A stretch of 64,000 nt of DNA from Vulcanimicrobiota bacterium (GTDB lineage Bacteria; Vulcanimicrobiota; Vulcanimicrobiia; Eremiobacterales; Eremiobacteraceae). The stretch spans positions 704,001-768,000 of the forward strand of contig CAWETU010000001.1 in the NCBI GenBank assembly GCA_963812135.1. The letters run 5' to 3'. The notes below the pieces were generated by a model. That model was not told the DNA's origin, made no database searches, and saw only the letters and a list, made by a program, of their open reading frames with translations. The position numbers and the translations under genes are program-made. The first letter of the stretch is position 1. The number at the start of each line of letters is the position of its first letter. Shown here piece after piece: positions 36,777-50,099 of the stretch.

Positions 36777-36801
36777 CCGGTCAGCAACCGCCGGTGGACG
36801 C

Positions 36802-36831
36802 TTGACACGGGTGTACGAAGCACAGTAAACT
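36802..36831 (+). promoter_or_regulatory. Sigma70 promoter of the znu operon
   Basis: TTGACA-N18-TAAACT. Confidence 0.7.
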
Positions 36832-36853
36832 TATCGAGAATGATTCTCGATAA
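36831..36853. promoter_or_regulatory. Zur/Fur-family operator, perfect 11-1-11 palindrome
   Basis: TTATCGAGAAT-G-ATTCTCGATAA, overlapping the end of the -10 and the znuA start codon. Confidence 0.85.
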
Positions 36854-37787
36854 GCATAAGACGCGACGCGCCCTCAGGTCCGCAGTGGCACTCACCATCG
36901 CTGTGTTGACCGGCTGCACCTCGCAACAACCGACTAGCGCACCGCAACCCACGACGACTCCGTCGTCCAGCCAACGCCTCCAAGTCGCCGCGACGATCTC
37001 GACGCTCGCAGCGCTCGTCAAGGCGGTCGGCGGCGACAAGGTCGACGTCGTGAGCATTGTGCCGATCGGCGTCTCGCCCGAAACGTATGACCCCTCGCCT
37101 CGCGACCTCATCGCCGTTGCAAACGCCCATATCATTTTCAAGAACGGCGCCGGACTCGAGATCTGGCTCGACAAGATGCTGCGCGCCGTCGCCAAGCCGA
37201 GCACCAAAGTCGTTGTGCTTTCGGACGGCCTGCCGGTCGCGGGCGCCAAAGGCCCGGGCGAACCAGGCAATCCGCATCTTTGGCTCGATCCGACATACGC
37301 GCAGGTGTACGTCCATAAGATCGCCGCGGCGCTGAGCGAGGTCGATCCCGCGAATGCGGCCTACTATAGCGCGCGCGAGAAAGCCGAGCAGAAGCAGTTG
37401 GCGCAGCTCGACGCGTGGATCAAGCAGCGCATCGCCACCATTCCGCCGGCGAACCGCACGATGCTGGCGTTCCACGACGCGTGGTACTATTTCGATCGCC
37501 GCTACGGCATCCGCGACGTCGGCGCCATCGAGCAGTCGCCCGGCCAATCGCCGTCCGCCGCGTATCTCGCGGCGCTGATCGCGCAAGCGCGCGCGAGCGG
37601 CACCCGCGCGGTGTTCGCTGAACCGCAGTTCTCCCCTAAACTTGCCCAACAGCTCGCCGCCAGCGCCGGCATTAAGACGGTGACGAACCTCTACGATGAC
37701 ACGCTCGGCACGACGCCGGAGCTACAGACATACGACGGGATGTTGCGTTACGATGTCGATACTATCGTCAAGGCATTGACATCATGA
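36840..37787 (+). CDS. znuA: Metal (Zn/Mn) ABC transporter substrate-binding lipoprotein
   Basis: Lipobox LTGC, NGAGLE, NPHLWLDP, FHDAWYYF, VFAEPQ. Confidence 0.88.
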   Translation: MILDKHKTRRALRSAVALTIAVLTGCTSQQPTSAPQPTTTPSSSQRLQVAATISTLAALVKAVGGDKVDVVSIVPIGVSPETYDPSPRDLIAVANAHIIFKNGAGLEIWLDKMLRAVAKPSTKVVVLSDGLPVAGAKGPGEPGNPHLWLDPTYAQVYVHKIAAALSEVDPANAAYYSAREKAEQKQLAQLDAWIKQRIATIPPANRTMLAFHDAWYYFDRRYGIRDVGAIEQSPGQSPSAAYLAALIAQARASGTRAVFAEPQFSPKLAQQLAASAGIKTVTNLYDDTLGTTPELQTYDGMLRYDVDTIVKALTS

Positions 37788-38695
37788 GCGAGCATGAAAC
37801 CGTGCACAACCACACCCACGTCGATCCGGCGACGCCGACCGCGCCGGCCGATCATAGCCATGCGGTCACCGCCACCAAGCCGCATCTGCATCAGCATCGC
37901 GATCATCGGCCGCCGGAGCCGCGCGATATATCGGTCGGCGCGAACAGCGCGATCGACTTGGAAGGCGTGTGCGCGGGCTACTTCGGCCGCGACGTGCTCG
38001 ACGAGGTCAGCCTCGATGTCAAGCGCGGCGAGTTCGTCGGGATCATCGGCCCCAACGGCGCCGGCAAATCGACGCTGCTCAAGGTCATCGCAGGACTGCT
38101 CGAGCCGCAGTGCGGCATCGTGCTCGTCCTCGGCAAGCCGCCCGGCCACGGCCAACCTATAGGCTACGTGCCGCAGACCGAAGCGGTGAATTGGACATTC
38201 CCGGTCAGCGTTCTCGACGTCGTGCTCATGGGTGTGTACGGCAAGCTCGGCCTGTTCCACCGGCCCGGCGAAACTGAGCACCGCGCCGCGTTGAGAGCGC
38301 TTGAGGAAGTCGGCATGCGCGAGTTTGCGGACGAGCAGATCGGCGAGCTCTCCGGTGGACAGCAGCAACGCGTTTTTGTGGCGCGCTCGCTGGTGCAAAA
38401 CCCCGAGCTGCTGCTGTTGGACGAGCCGATCTCCGGCGTCGACGCGACGAGCCAGCACGCGATCTTCACCTTGCTCGAGGAGCGCCAGAAAAGAGGCCAG
38501 ACGATCGTGGCCACAACGCACGACCTGTCGTGCGTGGCCACGTGGTTCGACAAAGTGCTGTGCCTCAACCATCGCGTGATCGCCTATGGGCCGCCGGACC
38601 AGGTGCTCACCGATGCGACGCTGTCCGCGACCTTCGGTAGTCACGTGTTGGTCATCCCCGACGCGCAGGCCGCAGTCCGGTCGGCGCAGCTCTAA
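37784..38695 (+). CDS. znuC: Metal ABC transporter ATPase with a His-rich N-terminal extension
   Basis: [32 protein letters not shown]. Confidence 0.9.
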
Positions 38696-38698
38696 GGC

Positions 38699-39565
38699 GT
38701 GGATTGGCTGCTCGTCCCCTTGCAACAGGACTTCATGGTGCGCGCGCTCATCGCGTCGACGCTGATCGGCTTGGTCTGCAGCGTCGTCGGCGTCTACGTC
38801 GTGCTGCGCAACCTCGCGTTCATCGGCGACGGCATCGCGCACGCGTCATTCGCCGGTATTGTGATCGCGTATCTTCTCAAGTTCAATCTCTACGTCGGCG
38901 GACTCATCGTGGCGGTGCTCACGGCGCTTGGTATCGGCGCGATCAGCCGGCGTTCGGAGGTTTCGGTGGACACGGCGATCGGCGTCATGTTCACGTCGGT
39001 TTTCGCGTTGGGCGTGCTTCTCATGTCGAGGGCGCGCAACTACATCGTCGATCTGCAAGATTTCTTGTTCGGAAATGTGCTCGGCGTCGACCGGACGGAC
39101 ATCATCCTTGTCGCGAGTCTGACGTGCGGTGTCCTCATCATCATCTTCGCGCTGTACAAAGAGCTGCTGTTCGCGTCGTTTGATCCGCTCATGGCGCAGG
39201 CGAGCGGCCTGCCGGTGACCGCGCTGAGCAACTTGCTGCTCGTCATCCTCGGCGTGACCATCATCGTGTCGCTGCAGGCTGCCGGCATCGTGCTCGTCGC
39301 AGCGCTGTTGGTGACGCCGGCGGCGGCTGCGTTCCAGTTGACCAACCGTTTCGGCGCGATGATGGCGACGTCGGCGGCGATCGGCGTCGGCTCGGCGATC
39401 GTCGGTCTGTACGCGTCGTACTATCTCAACGCGGCGTCGGGCTCGACGATCGTGCTCACCGCGACGTTGTGCTTCTTCGCGGCGATGGCGTTCTCGCCCA
39501 AGCGCCGCTCGTTGCTCACCCAAGTGCTTGAGGCGCGCCGTCGTGCGCGATCGGCGACCCCATGA
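38699..39565 (+). CDS. znuB: Metal ABC transporter permease
   Basis: FIGDGIAHASFAG, LFGNVL, SFDP, GIVLVAALLVTPAAAA. Confidence 0.9.
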   Translation: MDWLLVPLQQDFMVRALIASTLIGLVCSVVGVYVVLRNLAFIGDGIAHASFAGIVIAYLLKFNLYVGGLIVAVLTALGIGAISRRSEVSVDTAIGVMFTSVFALGVLLMSRARNYIVDLQDFLFGNVLGVDRTDIILVASLTCGVLIIIFALYKELLFASFDPLMAQASGLPVTALSNLLLVILGVTIIVSLQAAGIVLVAALLVTPAAAAFQLTNRFGAMMATSAAIGVGSAIVGLYASYYLNAASGSTIVLTATLCFFAAMAFSPKRRSLLTQVLEARRRARSATP

Positions 39566-39999
39566 GCGCGAAACCGCGCGAGCGCGACGCCCTCGACGAG
39601 CGCTTGGCGCGCAGCGGCGGGCGTATGACCACGCAGCGCAAGACGATCGTCGCCGAATTCGAGCGGCTGCGCCGCTACGTGACCCCGCAAGAACTGCATC
39701 GCAGGCTCGCCGACAGCCGCCCGCGCATCGCGCTGGCCACTGTCTACCGGACGCTTGAAATGCTCGAGGGCATCGGCGCTGCGTCGCGCGCGCCGCGCGC
39801 GCATGGTGAAGCGGCATATCTGTTCTGCGCGCCGACGCACCATCACCACGCCGTCTGCACCCAATGCGGCAAGGTCGATGACGTGCCGTGCGGCTCGGTC
39901 GAACGCTTCGCGCGCACGCTTGCGAAAGGTCTGCGCTTCCAGCTGCGCCAGCACAGCCTCGAGTTCTACGGCGTGTGCGCCCGCTGCTCCGGCGCCTAG
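39562..39999 (+). CDS. zur: Fur-family regulator, probably Zur
   Basis: RMTTQR, ATVYRTL, HHHHAVCTQCG, FYGVCARC; last gene of the znu cluster. Confidence 0.82.
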   Translation: MSAKPRERDALDERLARSGGRMTTQRKTIVAEFERLRRYVTPQELHRRLADSRPRIALATVYRTLEMLEGIGAASRAPRAHGEAAYLFCAPTHHHHAVCTQCGKVDDVPCGSVERFARTLAKGLRFQLRQHSLEFYGVCARCSGA

Positions 40000-40069
40000 C
40001 GACTTTTCCGCAACGCCCCAGCGCCCGCACGCCAGGCCCGGCGCCGCGCCGACGCGAATGACGCGCGCC

Positions 40070-40741
40070 ATGCCCCAAAAGCCATCAGCGCCGCCCGTCG
40101 ATCGGACGGGCCGTATAGCGACGCTCGCGTTCGGCGTGTTCGTCATCATCGGCATCATCGCGCTCATCGCCTACACGATGACGCATCAGAACGCGCCCGC
40201 CGCGGTCAGTCCGGCGGCGACGCAGACCGCGACACCGGTGCCGCGGCCGAGCGAAACGCCGGGAACCCACTTCAAATCGCAAGGCCACCCCGGTCACGAC
40301 CAGAAGGACCCGAGCAAGATGGGCAGCTTCCGTTACAATTCGGATCCGCCCACGTCCGGGATGCATTTCGAAAAGTTTACCGACGCCCTCATCAACACGA
40401 AACCGCTGCCGAAGTACATACAAGTGCATGTGCTCGAGCACGGCAACGTGTTGCTGCAGTACAATTGCACCTGTCCGGACATAGCCGGCGCGTTGGCGCA
40501 GATCGCGTCGAGTTACAACAACCGCCAACTACCCGCGGGCAGCGCTGAGTTCACTCCTGATATCGTGCAAACGATCGAAGAGAATGGCTCTGGCGTGATC
40601 GTCGCGCCCTACCCGGGCATGAAATCCAAGATTGCGCTCACCGCGTGGACTCGGCTGCAGACCTTTGACGCGATCGATCAGGCGAGCATGGTGCGCTTCA
40701 TCAACGCCTACTTGACCAATCAGGAGAACGCCGCTCAGTGA
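40070..40741 (+). CDS. DUF3105-like membrane-anchored protein, paralog 1
   Basis: TM; SQGH, YNSDPPTSGMH, VHVLEHGNVLLQYNCTC, IALTAW. Confidence 0.78.
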   Translation: MPQKPSAPPVDRTGRIATLAFGVFVIIGIIALIAYTMTHQNAPAAVSPAATQTATPVPRPSETPGTHFKSQGHPGHDQKDPSKMGSFRYNSDPPTSGMHFEKFTDALINTKPLPKYIQVHVLEHGNVLLQYNCTCPDIAGALAQIASSYNNRQLPAGSAEFTPDIVQTIEENGSGVIVAPYPGMKSKIALTAWTRLQTFDAIDQASMVRFINAYLTNQENAAQ

Positions 40742-41373
40742 AACTGACGAACAGCATCGTGCCTGCCGCGGCGATCGCAGCGCTCGTCCTGGCCGGCTGC
40801 GCCAAGGGCGACAGCAACACGAGCGCCGCCGCATCGCCTTCCGCCGCCTCGCTCGCGGCAGCCCCGAGCTCCTCGCCGCAGACGATCGCGCTGACGTTTT
40901 TGGGCACACACTACCCCTCGCAAGGCCACCGGCATTTCGACCCGGGCGAGTCGACCAAGTTCGCCTACAACTCGGACCCGCCGACGTCCGGCCCCCACTT
41001 GGAGATGTTCAGCTCTTCGTTCAACAACGCGACGCCGCTGCCGGCGTTCGTCCAAGCCCACCTGCTCGAGCACGGCAATATCTTGCTGCAATACAACTGC
41101 AACTGCCCCGATATCGCCGGCGCGCTTTATCAGATCGCGTACAAGTACGACAGCCGGCTCATCCCGCCGGACCAGATGCAGGCGACGCCGGCCCAAGTGC
41201 AGGCCGCCGAAGAGGCCGGTGAGTCGGTCGTCGTGGCGCCGTATCCGGGGATGAAGCACAAGATCGCGCTGACGGCGTGGACCCGCCTCGGCACGCTCGA
41301 CTCGATCGATCAGGCCAAGATCGAATCGTTCATCAACGCGTACCTGCACAACCAAGCGAACACCGCGCAATAA
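40738..41373 (+). CDS. DUF3105-like lipoprotein, paralog 2
   Basis: Lipobox LAGC; SQGHRH, YNSDPPTSGPH, AHLLEHGNILLQYNCNC, IALTAW. Confidence 0.8.
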   Translation: MKLTNSIVPAAAIAALVLAGCAKGDSNTSAAASPSAASLAAAPSSSPQTIALTFLGTHYPSQGHRHFDPGESTKFAYNSDPPTSGPHLEMFSSSFNNATPLPAFVQAHLLEHGNILLQYNCNCPDIAGALYQIAYKYDSRLIPPDQMQATPAQVQAAEEAGESVVVAPYPGMKHKIALTAWTRLGTLDSIDQAKIESFINAYLHNQANTAQ

Positions 41374-41379
41374 CCACTG

Positions 41380-43656
41380 TCACGGAATCGGTGCCGTGAT
41401 CTGCGCGGTGAATTGGAAACCGCGCGCGTATTGCGTCGTGTTGAACCCGTTGTTGAGTTTGATCAGGTACTGGTTGTTCGTGATATTCGTGGCCTGCAGT
41501 TGATAGCCGAAGCGACCCGGCGCTGCGAGACGGCCGACCGACGCATTGAGCTCCCAGTGCGCGGGCAACCGGCCAGGTCCGTTTTCGAACTGGACCGGGA
41601 AGCCGCTGCCGTAAATCGTCTGGAGACTCGCGTACATCGACCGGTCGGGTGAGAAGCGCCACGTGTATCCGGTGTTGAGCGTGTTGGTTTGATCATGATC
41701 CTCTGGCGCATATCCGTTCGCGCCTTGCAGCTGATCCGGCGAGAACAAGAACGTGCCGCCCGAGATGCCGGATGCGACTGATTGCGACAATCCGTACGAG
41801 ACGAAGTACGTATTGCCGTTGTCCTGCGTGCCCGTCACGCTCAGCTCGATTCCCTGAGCCCGGCCGGCGGTAGAGTTGAAGATCGTGAAGATCGGCGTCG
41901 AGCCGATCTGCGTCGTGTCGAGCACGTTGGCGACCGCACGCGCCCAGTAGTTCACGTACCACTTCGACCGCGGGTCGATTTGATGGGAAAAGCCGAACTC
42001 GTAGATCGAGTCGGTCTCGGGCTTGAGATCGTATACCGGCAAGCCTGAACCCCCGCTGACCACTACCGCGGAACGTCGCGTGTCTTCGAGCGCGGGCGCG
42101 GCATAAAGCCGCCCGTAGTACGCGTGGACGACGTCTTTAGGGTTGAGCGTCTGATAGTCGAGCTCGATGCGCGGGCTCACCTGATTGCCATCGGTGAAAC
42201 CGGTCGAGCGGTCGTAGCGCAGGCCGACATTGGCGGTGAAGGCCGATGACAAGATGCGCTTATCCTCGGCATAGATGCCGAAGTTCGTGCCGTTCTGCGA
42301 TACGTTGTCGTCGAAGCGCTGCAACGTCATGCTCGAGTCGATGAATTGGATGTTGAAGAGGCTCGTGAAGTTCTCGGTATAGGCCGTGAAGCCCATCTTG
42401 ACGTTGTCGCGCGGGTCGGTGCGGAACCACGTCGTCGTCAGGCCGTAATACGTCCCAACGCGGTCTTGGAACGTCGACGTCGCCGCGGTGCCGGCGAGAT
42501 CGTTGGGCGGATCGGGGAAGTACCTTACTTGGCCGCGGTTGTACCACGGCGCGATCTCAAGATAGCCTTGGCCGTCGCCGCTGAGCCGGTTGAAGATGAG
42601 GTTCGCGTATTGGCCGTTCTCATACTGATTGTCGTCAGTTCCGGGCGGCACGAAGCTCGGGCTGGCCGGGTTCGTGTCGATCGGGATCTGGAACGTGGCG
42701 AACAGGTTCGAGAAATGCAGCGCCCATGAGTCGCGCTTGTCAGGGTCGTACGTCAGCCGCAAGAATTCGTTCGATTGGCTCGCGGCGTCGTGTACCGGGT
42801 TGATCGTCGGCGTGTCCAGCCCGCGATCGGAACGCGTGAGGCCGAGCGAGACATAGCCCTTGAACGCATCGCCGCCAAAGGATTCGCTCAGCTGCCCCTG
42901 GGCGGACGCATAGTTCCCGCCGGTCAACACGATGTCGCCGCCGTTTCCGGACGGGCGCCTGGTGATGATGTTCACGACGCCGCCCTGGCGGCTGCCGCCG
43001 AACTCGGCTGGGAACGAGCCCGTGTAGACCTCGAGCGAACCGATGTCGCGGGGATCGAGGACCTCGGCGAACGACGATGAGGTCGTCTGCGGAACGGGCA
43101 CGCCGTCGATCTGATAGGCCACGCCGTGAAAACCGCGCACGACAGGCTCATCGTACGAGAAGGGCACGACGCCTGGCACCGTCGCCGTGACGTTGGCGAG
43201 TTTGAAATTGCTCGGCAGCGTCCGCACGAACGACGGCGTGAGGACGGCGACGCTTACCGGATGTCCAGCCTTGGCGACGGTGACGACACTCCCGAGCGTT
43301 TTCTTCGTGAGATGGAAATCGAGCACCGTGGAGCTGCCGGTGCTTACGGTCACCACGCCGCTTTGCGTGCCCAGAGCAGGCGCGCTTGCCGTGACGGTGT
43401 ACGTGTCGAACACGACGCGAGCGAACACGTAGCGTCCGTCGCTGCGCGTGACGGTATGGTCGGTCGTGCCTTCGCCGCTCTTGATGATCACCGTCGCATT
43501 CGCGACAGGCTTATCGTTGTCGTCGAAGACCGTGCCTTGGATCGCTCCATACGTGCTGGCGGCAGCGGGAGTTCCCACACACAGCAGCGCCGGGATGATG
43601 AGAAGAGAGAGCGCGACAAGCGCGCGCGCACGCGAATAAACAGAAAGAATACGCAA
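41380..43656 (-). CDS. TonB-dependent-receptor-like outer-membrane protein 1, with N-terminal carboxypeptidase-regulatory-like domain
   Basis: Signal peptide; GTVFD...PVANATV; plug (YQIDGVPV, VYTGSFPAEFGG...GVVNIIT); barrel motifs GLRYD, SPRI, PETD. TTG 43656 chosen as start because of a GGAGG RBS. Confidence 0.85.
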   Translation of the reverse strand: MRILSVYSRARALVALSLLIIPALLCVGTPAAASTYGAIQGTVFDDNDKPVANATVIIKSGEGTTDHTVTRSDGRYVFARVVFDTYTVTASAPALGTQSGVVTVSTGSSTVLDFHLTKKTLGSVVTVAKAGHPVSVAVLTPSFVRTLPSNFKLANVTATVPGVVPFSYDEPVVRGFHGVAYQIDGVPVPQTTSSSFAEVLDPRDIGSLEVYTGSFPAEFGGSRQGGVVNIITRRPSGNGGDIVLTGGNYASAQGQLSESFGGDAFKGYVSLGLTRSDRGLDTPTINPVHDAASQSNEFLRLTYDPDKRDSWALHFSNLFATFQIPIDTNPASPSFVPPGTDDNQYENGQYANLIFNRLSGDGQGYLEIAPWYNRGQVRYFPDPPNDLAGTAATSTFQDRVGTYYGLTTTWFRTDPRDNVKMGFTAYTENFTSLFNIQFIDSSMTLQRFDDNVSQNGTNFGIYAEDKRILSSAFTANVGLRYDRSTGFTDGNQVSPRIELDYQTLNPKDVVHAYYGRLYAAPALEDTRRSAVVVSGGSGLPVYDLKPETDSIYEFGFSHQIDPRSKWYVNYWARAVANVLDTTQIGSTPIFTIFNSTAGRAQGIELSVTGTQDNGNTYFVSYGLSQSVASGISGGTFLFSPDQLQGANGYAPEDHDQTNTLNTGYTWRFSPDRSMYASLQTIYGSGFPVQFENGPGRLPAHWELNASVGRLAAPGRFGYQLQATNITNNQYLIKLNNGFNTTQYARGFQFTAQITAPIP

Positions 43657-43713
43657 GGAAATGGCCTCCACAAGGGTGTGGCGGCCAAAGGGCGGGATGC
43701 CGGTTTTGGCCGC

Positions 43714-44386
43714 CTATGCTACAAGGGCAGCGAACACCGGAGGAGGACGGCTGGCGATGTGGCGCGCCAGTAGGGGCGGAGCGGGCGACGCTGCGGCAAG
43801 CGCGAGCGTGCGCAACTGCGGCGCGCAGTGCGGGCGGACCGGTTGCGACAGCCGGTCGATCGCGACCAGCACGAAGCGCGCGATGGCGGCGACGCTTTCA
43901 CACGCCGCACGCGCGAAGGCGCGCAGCGCGAGCGCGAGCGTCGCGCCGATGATGATGTGGACGAACGGGGCGCTGAAGTGGCCGGGTCCGAAAATCGCGC
44001 CCGAGCCCAAAACCGCCGTACGAAGAAAGCGCTTGTTCAGACAGCTCTCCGACGACGAGCGACATGAGCTGTAAACCGACGACCGTCGCGATCAGACGGC
44101 TGGGCGAAATCTCCCGCACTGCATCGAGCGCCGGCAACAGCCACTCGGCATCCTGGAACTTGTCGCGGGCGCTTTCGATCACGCCACGCGCGATGAGATA
44201 ACCGGCGATGAGCAGCAGGCCTAGTGCAAGGTAGGCAAAGGGCGACTGCAGCGAGTGGGTGTAATGCGCGGGGACGCCGCCGAAGAGATGCGCGTTTTCG
44301 ATGTTCAACTGCGTAGCATGGCCGAGCAGGGAGGCGCTCAACGCAACCGCCCCGACGAGCAACCAGCACACGTCCCTTCGAGCCAT
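43714..44386 (-). CDS. Multi-TM His-containing leader membrane protein ending in RPPP; split by a +1 frameshift at about 44001
   Basis: ORFs 43898..44386 and 43714..44010 join (…GGFGL-GAIFGPGHF…) if one base is removed from CCC 44000-44002. The product resembles 48589..49200 (GLQL..E motif; C-terminal RPPP). Confidence 0.7.
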
Positions 44387-44477: not shown

Positions 44478-45116
44478 CTACGCGCCCGCTTTATGCGCGG
44501 CCGCCAGCAACTGTGATTCCGGCATCTCGCCGCTGCCGGCGAACGTGATCGTCCCCTTGGCGTTCACGATGTAGATCGTCGGAAAGCCGTTGAGCCCCCA
44601 CGCTTGCGCGACCTTGAGATCGGCATCGAACGCCGACGGCCACGTGACGTTGAAGTACTTGTCGAACGAGTCGACGTCCGTCTGATTCTCCGGGATCGGA
44701 TTGCCCTGCGTCGAGCCCGCGGCGTACGGCGATCCCGTCACGGAAAGCATGCCGAAGCGCGACTCCGGCAGCTTGGCGCGCAGCGATCGCAAGACTCCGG
44801 TCATGCGCTGGCAATGCGGGCACCACGTCGCGAACAGTTCGAGCATGTACGGCTTGCCGGCAAACGTCGCGTTGGTGATCGGACCGAGCATCGTCTGCAC
44901 GGAGAAGGGCGGCGCCTGCTGGCCGGCTTTGTGCGGGGGCGGCACCGACGGGATCGCGTTGGGCGCGACGGCTGCGCTCGGCAGTTTGTGCATCTGGGTC
45001 CATGCGTAGACGACGATCGCCACCACGACGAGGACGCCGACGATCAGCGATACAATGGTGCCGGGCGCCGGTCCAGATCGCGCGCCGGAAGGTCGTGACG
45101 GTTGTCTCGCGCTCAA
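44478..45116 (-). CDS. Membrane-anchored TlpA/thioredoxin-like disulfide reductase
   Basis: TM; LFATWCPHC; GFPTIYIVN. Confidence 0.88.
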   Translation of the reverse strand: MSARQPSRPSGARSGPAPGTIVSLIVGVLVVVAIVVYAWTQMHKLPSAAVAPNAIPSVPPPHKAGQQAPPFSVQTMLGPITNATFAGKPYMLELFATWCPHCQRMTGVLRSLRAKLPESRFGMLSVTGSPYAAGSTQGNPIPENQTDVDSFDKYFNVTWPSAFDADLKVAQAWGLNGFPTIYIVNAKGTITFAGSGEMPESQLLAAAHKAGA

Positions 45117-45536
45117 TTCTTACCTCTTGCCGCTCGCATCATCGTCGGCTTGGTGTTCCTCGCCGCCGGTGTTTTGAAAGTGGGTCACGCGCCGGATCTC
45201 GGTTCCACCATCGTCGCGTTCCGGCTCGACTTGCCGCCCGCGTTCGTCGGTTTCGCGGCCATCGCTTTGCCGCTGTTTGAAATCGTGCTAGGCGTCTACC
45301 TGCTGCTCGGCTGGCAGCTGCGCATCGTCTCGATCGCGGCTTTCATCGTCTTGTTGATCTTCATCGCCGCGCTTGCCTCGGTCGTGATGCGCGGCATCCC
45401 GACCCCGTGCGGCTGCTTCGGGCCGGCCGAAACGGATCCGGTCACATGGTGGACGATCGCGCGCGATGGCGCCGCCATCATCCCGGCGGCTTATCTGGTG
45501 TGGTGGTCATGGCGCCGTGCGCCCGCGACGCCGTGA
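45102..45536 (+). CDS. MauE/DoxX family redox-associated membrane protein
   Basis: ARIIVGLVFLAAGVLK, LPLFEIVLG, CGCFG, RD. Confidence 0.82.
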   Translation: MSRAQFLPLAARIIVGLVFLAAGVLKVGHAPDLGSTIVAFRLDLPPAFVGFAAIALPLFEIVLGVYLLLGWQLRIVSIAAFIVLLIFIAALASVVMRGIPTPCGCFGPAETDPVTWWTIARDGAAIIPAAYLVWWSWRRAPATP

Positions 45537-45566
45537 CCATCCCAATGAGAACGATTGAGCTTAGCG

Positions 45567-46025
45567 CTATTTGACCATGTTCATGACGTCTGGGCCGATG
45601 CCGTGCACTTCGACGACCGTCTCGCCTTTGCACATCGCATAGTGATGCAATCCGGCGGGCAGCTCGACGAATGCGCCAGCAGGTAGCGTCACCATCTTCG
45701 CTGGATCCATCTTGTCGCCGATGCCGGCCATGAACGTGCCGCTCAGCACGGTGACCTGCTCAGATTGCGGATGCGAGTGCGGCGGGAACTTGAAGCCATC
45801 CTCGCATTTGTAGCGCGCGGCGTACTGGCCACCCGATTTAGTCGGATCGCCGAAGAGCACTGCGTACGAAACACCGGTCATCCCCTTGACGGGCTGCCAG
45901 TTCACGGCGCCCGGTTGGACGATGATGGGCGCCATAGGATTGGGCATGGCGATGGAGCTCGACGCGAGTCCGACGGCCGCCACCGCGAACACGACCGCAA
46001 ACGCGAGAACCTTACCCTTGTGCAT
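45567..46025 (-). CDS. Exported cupin domain protein
   Basis: Signal peptide; PPHSHPQSEQVTVLSG, HHYA. Confidence 0.82.
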   Translation of the reverse strand: MHKGKVLAFAVVFAVAAVGLASSSIAMPNPMAPIIVQPGAVNWQPVKGMTGVSYAVLFGDPTKSGGQYAARYKCEDGFKFPPHSHPQSEQVTVLSGTFMAGIGDKMDPAKMVTLPAGAFVELPAGLHHYAMCKGETVVEVHGIGPDVMNMVK

Positions 46026-46113
46026 GAGACCTCCTCACAAGCGCGGGTTAGATGTTCGGGCGGCATCTTGCACGTCGCTCGCAAGGCTACCCATTCGCGC
46101 CGGGACATCAAGT

Positions 46114-48502
46114 TCACTGGCCCGTGCCTAGCTTGATGCCAACATAGAAACGCACGGCCCGGCGCGTAATGGTTGCCCTGCGCGTTGAAGTACGTGATCC
46201 AGTACTGATGGTTGAGAAGGTTGTTGACGCGCACCCACGCCTGCGCGTTGGGCCCGATCGAGAAGCCTTTCTCCGCCGAGAAGATCGTGTGCGGGGTGTA
46301 CTTGCAAAAGCCCGGGGTGTCCGGCGGACAGGCCGCCGACGAAAGTCCGCTGCCGTACTCCTCGTCCATCGAGAACCAACCGCCGCGCGTGTCGTTGAAC
46401 ACGACGCCCGACGTCGCGCCATAACGCTGCTCGTGGTCTGCCGGCGTCCAATCGGTCGGTGACCCGAAGCACGGCGCGAGCAATTGCGTCTCGCAACCCT
46501 TGTTGACCGAATACGTGTGGTTGAAGCTCACGTAGAACCGGCCGTTATGGACGAGATTCTGCTGATAGTACGCGGTCTGCGTCGCGATGCGCCCGAGCGT
46601 ATAGTTGATGTCCTGGTGCAGCAGCGTGACGCCGACCTGCGTGTCGTCGATGAGATCCGTCGCGTTTTTCTGCATGATGCGCAGTCCTAGATCGCCGGGC
46701 CCGAGCGGCAGATGCCCGCCGATCTCGTAATCCGAATCGCGCTGCGGCTTGAGATCGAATTGCGCGATCGTCGGCTGCAGCGGCAGATTGAGCAAGAATG
46801 CGGCTCCCGGCGAGACGTTCTCGAATGAGAACGGCGTGAAGAACCGACCGTAGTACACGTACGCGCTTGCCCGTGGCGAGAAATACCGCGTGAACTTCAC
46901 GCGCGGGCTGAACTGCGTGAATCCCTGGTCGAACTGCGTCGAGAAGACCTGGAACGCGGTCCATCGCACGCCGTAGTCCAGCTCGTAGGCCGAGCCCATC
47001 AGCCAGCTGTCTTGGATGTATGCGACCTCGATGTGGCCGACGTTGGGCGAGTTATCGATCACCGGAAACGAGGCGAGCGGCGTCGATGGTGCGAGCAACG
47101 GCGCCAAATAGTTGCCCGGTTGCAGTGTGATGTCGTAGTACTTGGGCACGTTGGACATGTCGTACGACGCCCCCCAACGGATCGCGTGGACGCGGCTGCT
47201 CAACGCGTAGTCGAAGTTCAACAGGTAGTCGTTCGACGTGCGGTGATCGGCTAACGTGTTGGCGCACGTCACGTTGCTATAGTTCGGGATGGTGAGCGCG
47301 TTAAAGCAATCCGTCGGCATCCCGCCGTTGGCGGCGTTGAGCGCGAAGCCGTAGATCCAATCGTTGAGCGGATCGCCGAAGTCGCGGATCTGCGAGCGCC
47401 GATAGCCGCCGCCGAACGACATCGCGCCGTGGTCGCCGATCGCCTGCCGGAACTGGAGCGCGGCGAACGTATCGTCTTGGGTCTCGTTATCGTCCGAGCT
47501 CGCCGGCTGTCCGTCGTCGGTGGCCACCGGGATCTGGAACGTGCGATACGAGTGCGACAGCGTGAGATTCACGAAATTGCTGCCGCCGTTCCCATAAGGC
47601 AGCGTGTAGCGCACGAACTGATTGGCGTCACTCGCCTGGTTGTGCAACGATACGGCTTGGGGAGGATCCAGACCGCGCCCCGTGCTGCCGTTTTGGACTG
47701 CAAGCACGACCGAGCCATTGCCCACGCGATCGTGATAACCGAGCGTGCCGTCGAACGTGGAGAACGAACCCCCGTCAGCCTCGAACGTCGCACCCGGTCG
47801 CTCAACGTGGATGCCGGTTCGCGTGCTGATGTTGAGCACGGTGGCGAAGCGCTCGCCGTATTGCGCGGGATACGCGCCTTGGATCACGTCGACGAAGGCC
47901 GCATCGCCCGGGTTGAACTCGGAGCCGACGACACGATTGAGCGCTTGCGGCAGCGCGAGACCGTCAACGATATAGTTGATGTCGCCGTGATCGCCGTTGA
48001 TGTGCACGACGCCGTTGGCGCCGCGCGCTGCGCCTGGAAGCTGGATGAGCATTTCCGGAAAGCTGCCGCTAGCCGGCGTGCGCTCGAGGACAGTCGAGTT
48101 GAGGACCAGATCTGTGCCCGATCCGCGGATCGGCGCGCTGCGCACAGCGGACGCGGTGACGCTGCCGATCGTCTTGACGCTGATCTGGAGCGTGACGTCG
48201 GCGCCGCTCGCGGGCAGATCTACGGCGAGCGTGCCGCTGCCGCCGCTCGACGTGGCGATCAACGTGTACGAGCCAGGCGAGAGCGAGCCGAAACGGAAAC
48301 GACCTTCGGACGTCGTGCGAGCGGTCTGGACCACGTTGTTGCCTGTGGCCGTGACCGTCGCGTTCGCGACCGGCTTGCCGCTGCTCAAAACGGTGCCCGT
48401 CAGATACGCATTTGCCGCCATGCTCGGCAGCGGCGCCACGAGCGCGAGCACGATGGCGACAAACGATAGCGCCCGCACTGCGCGGGAAATAACCATGAAC
48501 AT
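46114..48502 (-). CDS. TonB-dependent-receptor-like outer-membrane protein 2; apparent +1 frameshift at about 46149 near the 3' end
   Basis: Paralog of 41380..43656 (PVANATV, YIVDG, GAYPAQYG, SPRV, DLIDDTQVG, DHEQ). Removing one base of AAA 46148-46150 gives a normal end APGRAFYVGIKLGTGQ* at 46114. Confidence 0.85.
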
Positions 48503-48528
48503 TTGAATTCCCTCTCGACAGATTAGAT

Positions 48529-48582
48529 GTAACGGTCGAGTTTAATCGACCGAACGAGTGTAGCGGTCGAATTTATCGACCG
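48529..48582 (+). repeat. Tandem pair of REP-like palindromes (copies 4 and 5)
   Basis: GTAA-CGGTCGA-gtttaa-TCGACCG and GTAG-CGGTCGA-attta-TCGACCG, 31-bp period. Confidence 0.8.
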
Positions 48583-48588
48583 GCACGC

Positions 48589-49200
48589 TCAAGCTATCGA
48601 GAGGGACGGAGGCGGGCGGTTGTAGAGCTGGCTGAACCAGATGAAATGCGGCAGGCCGAGCGGCGAGCGATCGCGCGATGCGACCAGCGCTGCGCCACGC
48701 GGCGTTGGCGTGACGAAGAAGGCGGCGATGGCGGCGGCGATCGAGGGAAGTCTGCGTCCGATCGCCCACGACGCGAGCCCCATGAAGATGACGGTCAGCG
48801 CCGCGCCGATAATGCCTGCGGCGATGTCGTGTCCGCAGAAGGGGCAACCTTCGCCGATCTGCGTCAGCAGCCCCAACGAAAGCTGCAGCCCCGCGGTGAG
48901 CGCGAAGAACGGACCGCGGCCGCGAAACGGCAGCGTCTCAAGACCGAGGTGCAGCTCACGTTTGAAATCTCTGCCGCCCGCGGATCTGCGCCACAGCGCG
49001 AGTGTCTGATGAAGGGCGACGCCGAACGCGAGCAGCCCCCCGATTCCCAGGTAGAGATGCTTTGGCGAGAGCGCGACGCTGTCTGCGTCGCTGCCCATCG
49101 CGAAAAACTCAGAAGCCAGGTGCGCGACGATGCTGCCGAGCACGACCAGTGCCAAATAGATCGGCACGAGTTGGTGTGGCGTGGAAGCCCGAGGTCGCAT
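48589..49200 (-). CDS. Multi-TM leader membrane protein with CxxC/His residues and C-terminal RPPP (start 49200 or 49227)
   Basis: Four hydrophobic segments, VAHLASE, KHLYL, GEGCPFCGHD, C-terminus LYNRPPPSLSIA. Confidence 0.75.
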   Translation of the reverse strand: MRPRASTPHQLVPIYLALVVLGSIVAHLASEFFAMGSDADSVALSPKHLYLGIGGLLAFGVALHQTLALWRRSAGGRDFKRELHLGLETLPFRGRGPFFALTAGLQLSLGLLTQIGEGCPFCGHDIAAGIIGAALTVIFMGLASWAIGRRLPSIAAAIAAFFVTPTPRGAALVASRDRSPLGLPHFIWFSQLYNRPPPSLSIA

Positions 49201-49241
49201 ACTCAATATATCGTCAGCCGGCAACATTTCTTGTGCCTGGC

Positions 49242-49264
49242 TTATTGAGAATCAATCGCAATAA
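49242..49264. promoter_or_regulatory. Second Zur/Fur-family operator
   Basis: TTATTGAGAAT-C-AATCGCAATAA; 9 of 11 positions symmetric; closely similar to 36831-36853. Confidence 0.75.
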
Positions 49265-49295
49265 GTCCTGCCGGCTTCTCGCTCCGAAGGTACGA

Positions 49296-50099
49296 CTACT
49301 TGGCGGGCCTCGGCGTTTCAGCTGCGGCGCCGAGCAGGCCCGGTTCCAGCCACATCCCGCCGTCTGCGACGAGGACCGCGCCGTTGACGTACGACGCGTC
49401 GTCGGAGAGCAAAAACGCCGCGGCAAGCGCCACTTCTTCGGGCGTCTCGAGGCGGCCGAGAGGCACCCGGCTTGCGATGCGGTTGCGGATCTCTTCCGTC
49501 GGAAAAAGTTTTTCGGCTGAACCCGGCGTGTTGACGACTCCAGGGCACAGCGCGTTCGTGCGGATGCCGTAACGACCCCACTCGACCGCCAGCGTTTGCG
49601 TCAGCGACACAACGCCTGCTTTTGCGGCGGCGGAATGGATCGTGCCCGGTCCGCCGGTCCACGCATAACTAGCGACGATGTTGAGGATGGAACCGCCGCG
49701 CCCCGCCGCGATCATCGCTTTGCCGGCCGCGCGCGCGCAATAAAACGTGCCGTTGAGCACGATGTTGATCACCGCATTCCAGCCATTGGGCGAGAGCTCT
49801 TCCGCGCGCACGATGAAGTTGCCGGCCGCGTTGTTGACAAGCGCGTCGATGCGGCCGTATTTGGCGACGACGCCGTCGACGAGCACTTGCACCTGATCCG
49901 GCACGCGCACGTCGGTCTGCGCCGACTCGGCGTCACCGCCTGCGGCGCGGATGCCGTCCACGGTTTCGGCGAGCGGTTCCGGGCGCCGGCCCGCGACGAC
50001 GATGCGTCCGCCAAGTCGCGCCAAGTGTTCTGCCATCGCGCGGCCCAAACCGGTCCCGCCGCCGGTGATGACAATCGTCTTGTCCTTGAAGTCAGGCAT
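49296..50099 (-). CDS. SDR oxidoreductase, 2,4-dienoyl-CoA reductase-like
   Basis: ITGGGTGLG, NNAAGNF, LSPNGWNAV, HSAAAKAG, DGG. Confidence 0.88.
   Translation of the reverse strand: MPDFKDKTIVITGGGTGLGRAMAEHLARLGGRIVVAGRRPEPLAETVDGIRAAGGDAESAQTDVRVPDQVQVLVDGVVAKYGRIDALVNNAAGNFIVRAEELSPNGWNAVINIVLNGTFYCARAAGKAMIAAGRGGSILNIVASYAWTGGPGTIHSAAAKAGVVSLTQTLAVEWGRYGIRTNALCPGVVNTPGSAEKLFPTEEIRNRIASRVPLGRLETPEEVALAAAFLLSDDASYVNGAVLVADGGMWLEPGLLGAAAETPRPAK

Follow-up and report, generated by a model that had tools for sequence, protein, structure and literature searches.

The window analysed here is a 64,000-nucleotide stretch of DNA from a Vulcanimicrobiota bacterium, an uncultured organism from soil (contig CAWETU010000001.1, positions 704,001 to 768,000). 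On its minus strand, a gene for a four-helix membrane protein, which we call the leader, ends in the residues RPPP shortly before its stop codon and is followed by a gene for a TonB-dependent-receptor-like protein. The codons directly after RPPP form a sequestering arm (anti-SD) that is complementary to the Shine-Dalgarno (SD) region of the receptor-like gene, and this pairing was found to be conserved and to covary among relatives of the leader. The arrangement points to a leader whose own translation probably gates the receptor gene, where a ribosome stalled at RPPP would unmask the SD. The features that make up the switch, all on the minus strand, are as follows.

46114..48502, minus strand: gene for an outer-membrane protein with a CarboxypepD_reg domain, TonB-dependent-receptor-like, with its ATG at 48502 (Pfam)
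48509..48521, minus strand: SD arm CUGUCGAGAGGGA containing GAGAGGGA (sequence, RNAfold)
48533..48552, minus strand: inner hairpin 2, CGGTCGA-UUAAAC-UCGACCG, a direct repeat of hairpin 1 (sequence, RNAfold)
48564..48582, minus strand: inner hairpin 1, CGGTCGA-UAAAU-UCGACCG (sequence, RNAfold)
48589..49227, minus strand: leader or sensor gene, four-helix membrane protein (list of open reading frames, homologues, AlphaFold2)
48594..48606, minus strand: anti-SD arm, the codons directly after RPPP (S-L-S-I-A) (sequence, RNAfold)
48607..48618, minus strand: RPPP codons CGC CCG CCT CCG, the proposed ribosome stall site (read from the sequence; conservation)
48826..48855, minus strand: codons of the GEGCPFCGHD loop (G125-D134) that joins helices 3 and 4 (each column invariant or conserved to at least 90% across 33 sequences)

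The open reading frame (ORF) of the leader runs over 48589..49227 with its stop codon included and gives 212 residues from the ATG at 49227, while a 203-residue product from the ATG at 49200, where most homologues begin, is probably the likelier form. Its C-terminus reads ...LYNRPPPSLSIA (YNRPPPSLSIA), with the stop codon at 48591-48589; the end is also written as ...FIWFSQLYNRPPPSLSIA. A word-indexed search returned 106 homologues, none of which carries a Pfam domain, and the few that are named bear the labels Candidatus Eremiobacteraeota or Eremiobacteraceae. When 401 genomes of the phylum were searched with a profile (a tally that takes in the five unpublished genomes G232, G344, G275, G230 and G128), the gene was found in 71 of them: 25 of the 29 genomes of the window's family, 45 of the 297 of a second family and 0 of the 74 that belong to 19 other families. 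Within this analysis the family, which is without a name, was seen solely in Eremiobacterota. The leader protein matched no Pfam family at E <= 0.01 and no NCBIfam family, and DUF2946 (PF11162) was matched by 0 of 33 family members, even at E <= 1. A Foldseek comparison of its AlphaFold model with the PDB gave nothing at E <= 0.001 (best 0.22), and a search of the ESM Atlas returned unnamed clusters only, mostly labelled Vulcanimicrobiota.

The AlphaFold2 model, built from a 33-sequence alignment, has a mean predicted local distance difference test score (pLDDT) of 79.5 and places helices at residues 21-51, 55-81, 106-125 and 132-172, with the C-terminal 40 residues disordered. Invariant or near-invariant residues in the same alignment are H36, E40, H57, Y59, R90, G125-E-G-C-P-F-C-G-H-D134 and R204-P-P-P207. 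The CPFC part of the loop is at least 90% conserved among the 33 sequences, and the window protein itself carries C128-P-F-C131-G-H133. By the positive-inside rule, both termini would be cytoplasmic, and the CPFCGHD loop would be grouped with H36, E40 and H57 on the periplasmic side, where the GEGCPFCGHD loop and these three residues form a candidate metal site. The Cys loop was observed to be absent from many distant relatives. Arrest peptides of the RxPP type are localised proteins, and the leader has four predicted membrane helices, as read from the model helices rather than from a dedicated topology predictor. It differs in this from the small exported proteins with a Sec signal peptide that typify DUF2946, since it has 203-212 residues and four helices.

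The RPPP motif was found in 170 of 174 family sequences (106 proteins and 68 locus ORFs, after removal of the duplicate of the window and two loci from unpublished genomes). Of the four others, two are truncated proteins, a third is a protein that has a frameshift-like tail and the fourth is a locus ORF (L069). RPPP lies 2-11 residues from the C-terminus in 168 of the 170, and 148 family sequences have Asn directly before it. The RPPP codons vary synonymously at all four positions, where six Arg codons and all four Pro codons were observed; therefore, selection acts on the peptide. An exhaustive hidden Markov model search of 1.84 billion cluster representatives returned 130 proteins, 126 of which were new and examined. 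RPPP was located in the last 20 residues of 102 of these and 35-55 residues before a longer end in 7, RAPP was present in 2 and LPPP in 3, and 12 matched at the N-terminus only. Hence, of the distant representatives matched as far as the profile's C-terminal end, 109/114 carry RPPP, 2/114 RAPP and 3/114 LPPP. In these comparisons RPPP is the best-conserved and most persistent feature of the leader family, because many distant relatives are without the Cys loop. The natural RPPP-to-RAPP swap ties the motif to a characterised arrest sequence; the window leader itself has RPPP and not the RAPP or RGPP form of the arrest motifs that are refractory to elongation factor P (EF-P).

The distance between the metal-type loop and the motif was also observed to be conserved. 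In 115 of the 143 sequences where both GEG and RPPP could be located, they are 79 residues apart (range 77-81). This spacing is near-constant despite the high variability of the 20-25 residues that precede a conserved W-F-x-x-L-[YF]-N-RPPP. It is a ruler of the same kind as the 45-residue spacing between metal motif and stall motif in CruR.

In the RNA of the window, UCCCUCUCGAUAG (48606-48594) pairs with CUGUCGAGAGGGA (48521-48509) at 13 of 13 positions, one of them a U-G pair, and the SD sequence GAGAGGGA within the latter ends 6 nt upstream of the ATG of the receptor-like gene (48502-48500). When 48490-48630 was folded with RNAfold, as had been proposed from the sequence, the 13-bp helix was present in both the minimum free energy and the centroid structures, where it encloses the two inner hairpins. 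The probability that the SD core pairs with leader codons in the window locus (L001) is 1.0. The fold has an energy of -54.4 kcal/mol, compared with -32.65 +/- 3.64 kcal/mol for 200 dinucleotide shuffles (z -5.98), and 0 of the 200 shuffles were as stable. The 64-kb window holds 33 inverted repeats with an exact 10-nt seed within 120 nt, mostly short G+C palindromes, among which the SD/anti-SD helix is the second longest. A single helix of this kind is unusual yet not decisive alone, and the case rests on its conservation in relatives.

The two inner hairpins (48533-48582) are near-identical, tandem and TCGA-centred, and each is followed by YUACAY (TACAC/TACAT). They may just bring the arms of the switch together, or may bind a protein too. 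One or two hairpins were seen by eye between the arms in relatives, where their sequence and number differ. The 86-nt spacer between the two genes contains 22 C and 20 G, is not C-rich and is almost wholly base-paired. An Rfam E-value scan of 48000-49600 found no family. A promoter and terminator scan of 48300-49500 found no promoter-like site, and none that was terminator-like in the spacer; the only two terminator-like sites in this interval sit inside the upstream SDR gene.

For the comparison with relatives, 71 loci were collected and 56 were kept for the RNA tests. The loci dropped were the duplicate of the window (L004), two from unpublished genomes (L012, L023), four with no RPPP or no downstream ORF in reach (L043, L045, L054, L069) and eight with an uncertain downstream start or a non-receptor next gene (L018, L038, L044, L051, L053, L064, L067, L071). 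In 52 of 56 loci, the mean probability that the SD core pairs with leader codons between the Arg codon and the stop codon is 0.5 or more, and in 55 of 56 the core pairs with anything. Duplexes between each leader tail and its own SD had a mean energy of -16.5 kcal/mol against -11.5 kcal/mol for non-cognate pairs, a cognate mean that was reached by 0 of 10,000 permutations, where the phylogenetic relatedness of the loci makes this figure and the shuffle figure given below overstate independence. The own SD was the best partner in 10 loci and among the top three in 20, with close relatives competing. The possibility that the pairing is a mere meeting of CUCC (Leu/Ser codons) with GGAG was rejected on this difference between cognate and non-cognate energies and on the covariation of the helix flanks.

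When 16 loci from the family of the window were aligned with MAFFT, RNAalifold recovered the core helix. For the 8-pair helix, 79.5% of the alignment cells are paired; sliding the 3' partner by 1-3 columns lowers this to 41.5-55.0%. The covariation score is 0.393 against at most 0.165 in the slid controls, with 0 of 500 shuffles reaching it. Five of the eight pairs change on both sides; for example, C-G, A-U, G-C and U-G were all observed at one position. The whole-spacer MAFFT alignment (A2) aligns the helix core only and has three rows gapped at the 3' arm; therefore, we rely mainly on the alignment-free duplex and pair-probability tests.

The position of the anti-SD was examined in 51 loci, those where three or more SD bases are paired. 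Counted from the last PPP codon, its centre falls at +3.2 +/- 4.9 nt, while its offset from the stop codon runs from 0 to -31 nt (standard deviation 7.9 nt). The offset from PPP does not correlate with tail length (r = 0.06), and in the 12 loci where PPP and stop are 21-33 nt apart the anti-SD is still -7 to +8.5 nt from PPP. The anti-SD is thus anchored to the stall (PPP) codons and not to the stop codon. The sequence-only reading, an earlier account made from the letters of the window alone, had described the RPPP-ending membrane ORF and its pairing with the SD region, both of which were confirmed on the minus strand. It had also asked of homologues that they keep the C-terminal RPPP, the transmembrane His residues and CxxC, a receptor-like gene downstream and compensatory SD/anti-SD changes. 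The motif was retained as described above, the His residues and CxxC-x-H were kept in homologues of the window's family in the 33-sequence alignment, and compensatory changes were found both as cognate specificity and as covariation. All the computational checks suggested in the sequence-only reading gave the outcome that it had foreseen.

The receptor-like gene was recognised by Pfam through CarboxypepD_reg (49.5 bits), with Plug at 18.8 bits lying under its cut-off of 23.9 and with no barrel match; NCBIfam gave no match for this first receptor-like protein of the window. It is 26% identical over its full length (E 1e-45) to the second receptor of the window, which passes the Plug and beta-barrel models, and some of its orthologues pass Plug, for example with 33.1 bits. 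The gene after the leader has a CarboxypepD_reg match in 59 of 63 scanned loci, many of them also with Plug, in line with the downstream receptor expected from the sequence; the rest are three loci with an AcrB-type RND pump and one fragment that was too short. The relatives before these pumps (L053, L064, L067) and those before a small non-receptor gene (L043-L045) keep RPPP and have acidic loops with no Cys pair. In L043-L045 the SD (UGGAG) still meets CUCCA directly after RPPP. In this, loop and cargo co-vary, which fits a loop that is the ligand-specific part of the leader.

Two further elements lie upstream of the leader, and the inverted repeat has a counterpart in a metal-uptake operon of the same window.

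49205..49213, minus strand: CGATATATT, a -10-like element 5 nt upstream of the ATG at 49200 (comparison with relatives)
49241..49265, minus strand: CTTATTGCGATTGATTCTCAATAAG, an inverted repeat of the Fur-family type upstream of the leader gene, with a 17-nt core at 49245-49261 (sequence, genome scan)
36800-41373, plus strand: operon of a ZnuA-family binding protein, an ABC ATPase, an ABC-3 permease, a Fur-family regulator (39562-39999) and two DUF3105 proteins (family scans)

The consensus of the box in relatives, TTATTGAGAAT-N-ATTCTCAATAA, is a Fur-family repeat of the 7-1-7 type, from which the window box differs at 2 positions in the genome scan. With at most 3 mismatches, the core was found upstream of the leader in 25 of 68 loci, and in 15 of 22 in the window's family, against 5 matches in the 101,634 nt elsewhere in the loci. 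The best match genome-wide is a perfect palindrome with the core TCGAGAATGATTCTCGA at 36834-36850, in the promoter of the znuA-ABC-FUR operon about 12 kb from the leader. A TTGACA-17-TAAACT promoter immediately precedes this palindrome, which overlaps the beginning of the ZnuA-type gene. The leader thus shares its box with a metal-uptake operon that encodes a Fur-family regulator, and because of this shared box we propose Fur-family control of the leader operon. The sequence-only reading had called the element a Zur-type box. A conserved Fur-family box shared with a Zn/Mn uptake operon is what was found, and Zur is one candidate for its regulator; the Fur, PerR and Zur models all match the regulator weakly and NCBIfam cannot separate Zn from Mn or Zur from Fur. 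A CGATA element was observed 5-25 nt before the start codon of the leader in 12 relatives, which suggests that it is a -10 box and that the leader transcript may be leaderless.

A second module of like design was seen at 41380-44386 on the minus strand. Its membrane-protein gene, leader 2 (43714-44386, minus strand), ends in ...HIASRPPPVFAALVA and is followed by a 10-bp hairpin, GGCGGCCAAA/TTTGGCCGCC, and by a full TonB-dependent receptor gene (41380-43671; CarboxypepD_reg, Plug, barrel). In the fold of this module, GGAGG of the receptor gene pairs with CCUCC of the Pro codons (z -4.2). Leader 2 is split by a frame break near 44000, which leaves an open frame of 125 residues against 223-228 in five genomes of the same genus, and its relatives keep PPLLARHIA[SN]RPPP. 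We did not call leader 2 a member of the first family; in a profile comparison its C-terminal half gave E 1e-3 and a probability of 22%, and nothing was matched in the N-terminal part. The two RPPP paralogues sit side by side on opposite strands in several other genera (for example, near 36100-37600 on contig C13 of genome G185), while in the genus of the window both are on the same strand with 5 kb between them. A third membrane-like ORF, outside the window (contig C1 of genome G000, near 1989761, plus strand), has 218 residues with three hydrophobic segments and ends in ...GERAPPSFAR, with RAPP 5 residues from the end; it turned up when the genome was crudely screened for ORFs that end in R[PAG]PP. 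Between the two modules (44478-46025) lie genes for a ChrR-type cupin (45567-46025, minus strand), a MauE/DoxX membrane protein (45102-45536, plus strand) and a TlpA/ResA-like thioredoxin-fold protein (44478-45116, minus strand), the last of which adjoins leader 2 on its upstream side. Thioredoxin-domain genes are also among the neighbours of RAPP leaders reported in a 2025 survey (PMC12992588).

The reading that we regard as fairly probable is that the leader is a polytopic inner-membrane sensor whose own translation gates the receptor gene, and that it is a stalling sensor of the CutF and CruR kind which unmasks the receptor SD. In the default state, the SD would be locked in the helix with the codons directly after RPPP, as the in silico folds predict. 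The mRNA channel of the ribosome holds about 12-15 nt 3' of the P-site codon. With a channel of this size, a ribosome on RPPP would cover the stretch from 0 to about +9 past the last Pro codon, which is where the anti-SD lies. A ribosome stalled with Pro codons in its P and A sites would thus hold the anti-SD arm in the channel, and the freed SD would allow the receptor to be translated. At this point of synthesis, helix 4 would be just out of the exit tunnel and the GEGCPFCGHD loop, 79 residues upstream, would face the periplasm beside H36, E40 and H57. Metal binding, with zinc or manganese as candidates, or finished membrane insertion may then alter the pull on the nascent chain and in turn the length of the stall. 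The sign to be expected for an uptake receptor, as in CruR, is that metal shortens the stall and turns the receptor off. Above this, transcription of the operon would be set by a Fur-family repressor, probably the regulator whose gene accompanies those of the znuA-type ABC transporter in the window.

Several observations weigh against this sensor reading. The genome encodes EF-P, which normally relieves PPP stalls, and a ribosome that reaches the stop codon briefly opens the helix, such that plain translational coupling might suffice. The leader is long (about 205 residues) with many invariant residues, which suggests a function of its own beyond sensing. In 4 of the 56 loci, the SD has no predicted pairing to leader codons, and a YRPPP clade, where the SD pairs with CCUCC of the Pro codons themselves, has poor own-versus-other specificity (ranks 9-45 of 56); the relatedness of the loci noted above belongs here as well. 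In the transcriptional layer, about 30 nt separate the Fur-type box from the -10-like element downstream of it, so that the two do not overlap, which fits no obvious mode of repression, and neither the binding protein (nearest to the MntC and AztC models, with 216 and 189 bits) nor the Fur-family regulator reaches any NCBIfam cut-off. Finally, the receptor gene has a frame break in the assembly near 46148, with the mechanical ORF running on to 45902. The frame changes about 12 codons before the likely end (...GRAF / YVGIKLGTGQ*, 46114-46160), and in a comparison with contigs of four DNA runs, one from soil run X1 that covers 45613-46288 is without one base at 46148. Taken with the break in leader 2, this looks like a homopolymer indel error in the assembly rather than gene decay.

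Translational coupling would explain the helix without regulated arrest: passing or terminating ribosomes would open it, which makes translation of the receptor depend on that of the upstream membrane protein, and RPPP would be a structural or interaction motif of the cytoplasmic tail. A helix at the very end of the upstream ORF suits such coupling, as do the presence of EF-P and the many invariant residues and confident four-helix model, which are as for a protein with its own function. The anti-SD, however, follows PPP and not the stop, and lies up to 31 nt upstream of the stop codon, where the footprint of a terminating ribosome would no longer cover it. In relatives with long tails, a ribosome at the stop would already have passed the anti-SD, and a stall at RPPP is therefore favoured over coupling by termination. 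Coupling also leaves aside that RPPP survives where other similarity is lost, giving way to RAPP or LPPP only, and that the spacing from loop to RPPP is near-constant across a variable linker. We consider coupling of this sort unlikely, though it is the strongest of the alternatives.

The same leader could act through Rho, with the ribosome stalled at RPPP shielding the transcript from termination so that the receptor gene is transcribed and the helix is secondary. This is the mechanism reported for the one RxPP leader studied before a TonB-dependent transporter (PMC9426467), and Rho is encoded in the genome. The 86-nt spacer would nevertheless be a poor Rho loading site, relatives often have spacers of just 31-58 nt, and the covariation is centred on the SD. 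Although the Rho mechanism and SD shielding could coexist, the former is less likely here because the spacer is structured and not C-rich, and we hold it to be quite improbable as the main mode of control. It is more improbable still, to the point of being hardly credible, that the inverted repeats are DNA operators or elements of RNA stability or termination whose overlap with the SD is incidental. The near-identical TCGA-centred palindromes of the inner hairpins, each with its TACAC or TACAT, could be protein-binding sites, yet relatives differ in these hairpins and retain the outer SD/anti-SD helix, the structure is not followed by a T-run, the spacer has no terminator-like site and no Rfam family was found.

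Within the sensor reading, a more specific version can be put forward, which we hold only tentatively and think doubtful. In this polytopic ruler, a site made of H36 and E40 (helix 1), H57 (helix 2) and CPFCGHD would assemble exactly as the ribosome reaches RPPP; zinc or another metal of the Fur-box regulon would alter the insertion force of helix 4 and so set the time that the anti-SD spends in the ribosome, and a swap of the loop would retune the scaffold to efflux pumps. If true, a multi-span membrane protein would for the first time be seen to serve as an arrest-peptide sensor, and for the first time such a sensor would be tied to periplasmic zinc or manganese and layered on cytoplasmic Fur/Zur control.

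The literature that we searched contains no description of the leader family, of a regulatory RPPP leader before a receptor or of a zinc-linked arrest peptide; for RPPP together with TonB, the motif appears merely within a list of searched motifs. Ribosome stalling at RxPP and XPPP motifs is well established. RPPP gave the strongest stalling of the XPPP contexts tested in E. coli by Starosta et al. 2014 (PMC4176338). Such pauses are incidental, occur inside ordinary proteins and are relieved by EF-P, unlike a conserved regulatory site that is coupled to an RNA switch. Arrest is reported to be induced by RxPP with x = G, A, S or P and to be kept in part by Ala-to-Pro mutants of ApdA and ApdP (PMC12992588).

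Stalling in SecM and MifM exposes a downstream SD. The same is stated in the introduction of the CutF preprint (bioRxiv 10.1101/2025.02.05.636593). ApdA/ApdP and SecM/MifM resemble the leader in having a C-terminal motif of the R-x-P-P type and an upstream localisation signal (PMC10951233, PMC7897499, PMC10987492). They differ in that, in the accounts drawn on here, they monitor Sec or YidC and regulate sec or yidC genes, use RAPP, RAGP or other motifs and carry no metal ligands. The EMBO J 2025 survey reports RAPP/RGPP upstream ORFs (uORFs) before genes for TonB-dependent receptors, YcnI, PCu(A)C, PepSY and thioredoxin (PMC12992588). Like the leader, its proteins have RxPP near the C-terminus of a localised protein and precede genes of metal homeostasis, including TonB-dependent receptors; unlike the polytopic leader, almost all of its receptor-linked uORF products are reported with signal peptides (PMC12992588). 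The RPPP family would escape this survey because it searched for RAPP and RGPP only, and motif surveys limited in this way would undercount such regulators.

CruR (Bp2923) of Bordetella pertussis is a DUF2946 protein in which copper is reported to relieve a RAPP stall, whereupon Rho terminates transcription before a TonB-dependent transporter gene (PMC9426467). It has in common with the leader an RxPP close to the C-terminus (three residues away in CruR), a CxxC motif, a fixed spacing from metal motif to stall motif and a TonB-type gene downstream. The sequence-only reading had drawn on CruR as a parallel, which is apt as regards control of a TonB-dependent transporter, but CruR acts via Rho-dependent termination and not via an SD hairpin (PMC9426467). 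As published, it further differs in its RAPP motif, its length (145 residues), its 45-residue spacing and 162-nt spacer, its dependence on Rho and independence of EF-P, and its response to copper. The logic in which metal relieves the stall is that of CruR, and for the leader it is an expectation only.

By analogy, the closest published mechanism to the leader switch is that of CutF, a DUF2946 protein of Rhodobacter capsulatus, where a PPP stall is reported to melt a stem-loop masking cutO's ribosome-binding site, with modulation by EF-P (PMC9973294, bioRxiv 10.1101/2025.02.05.636593). CutF and the leader share a C-terminal PPP a few residues before the stop, a Cys motif exposed to the periplasm (CxxxC in CutF) and a stem-loop that shields the SD, and the interplay with EF-P may be counted as a further likeness. 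At the leader loci, too, base pairing takes up the SD of the following gene, in a conserved helix. CutF is described as small and exported, with about 118 residues, a cleavable signal peptide and the sequence GPPPRL; it controls a multicopper oxidase, and copper turns it on. The leader has about 205 residues, four helices, NRPPP, no DUF2946 match, a receptor-like cargo and a Fur-type box, and its anti-SD lies inside the coding sequence, directly after the stall codons. The earlier description of the locus as an undescribed variant therefore holds for the protein family and the architecture, but not for the principle, which is already published; switches of this kind have been described since 2022, and the sequence-only reading does not mention CutF. 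What is new is the vehicle: a four-helix protein of about 205 residues that is unrelated to DUF2946, with RPPP, a 79-residue ruler, an anti-SD right after the stall codons and a Fur-type box, in an uncultured phylum.

Work on metal sensors of the arrest-peptide kind has so far dealt with small exported peptides of the DUF2946 type (CruR, CutF), and surveys of them have gone through RAPP and RGPP only. The leader family would carry the same logic in an unrelated four-helix RPPP protein, from a phylum with almost no cultured members, and the RNA half of its switch has unusually clear comparative support in the covariation and in an anti-SD anchored to the stall codons. It could serve as a test case for how the binding of a ligand outside the cell tunes a stall inside the ribosome, for which the 79-residue ruler provides a handle, and for whether PPP stalls that are sensitive to EF-P can serve as regulated switches.

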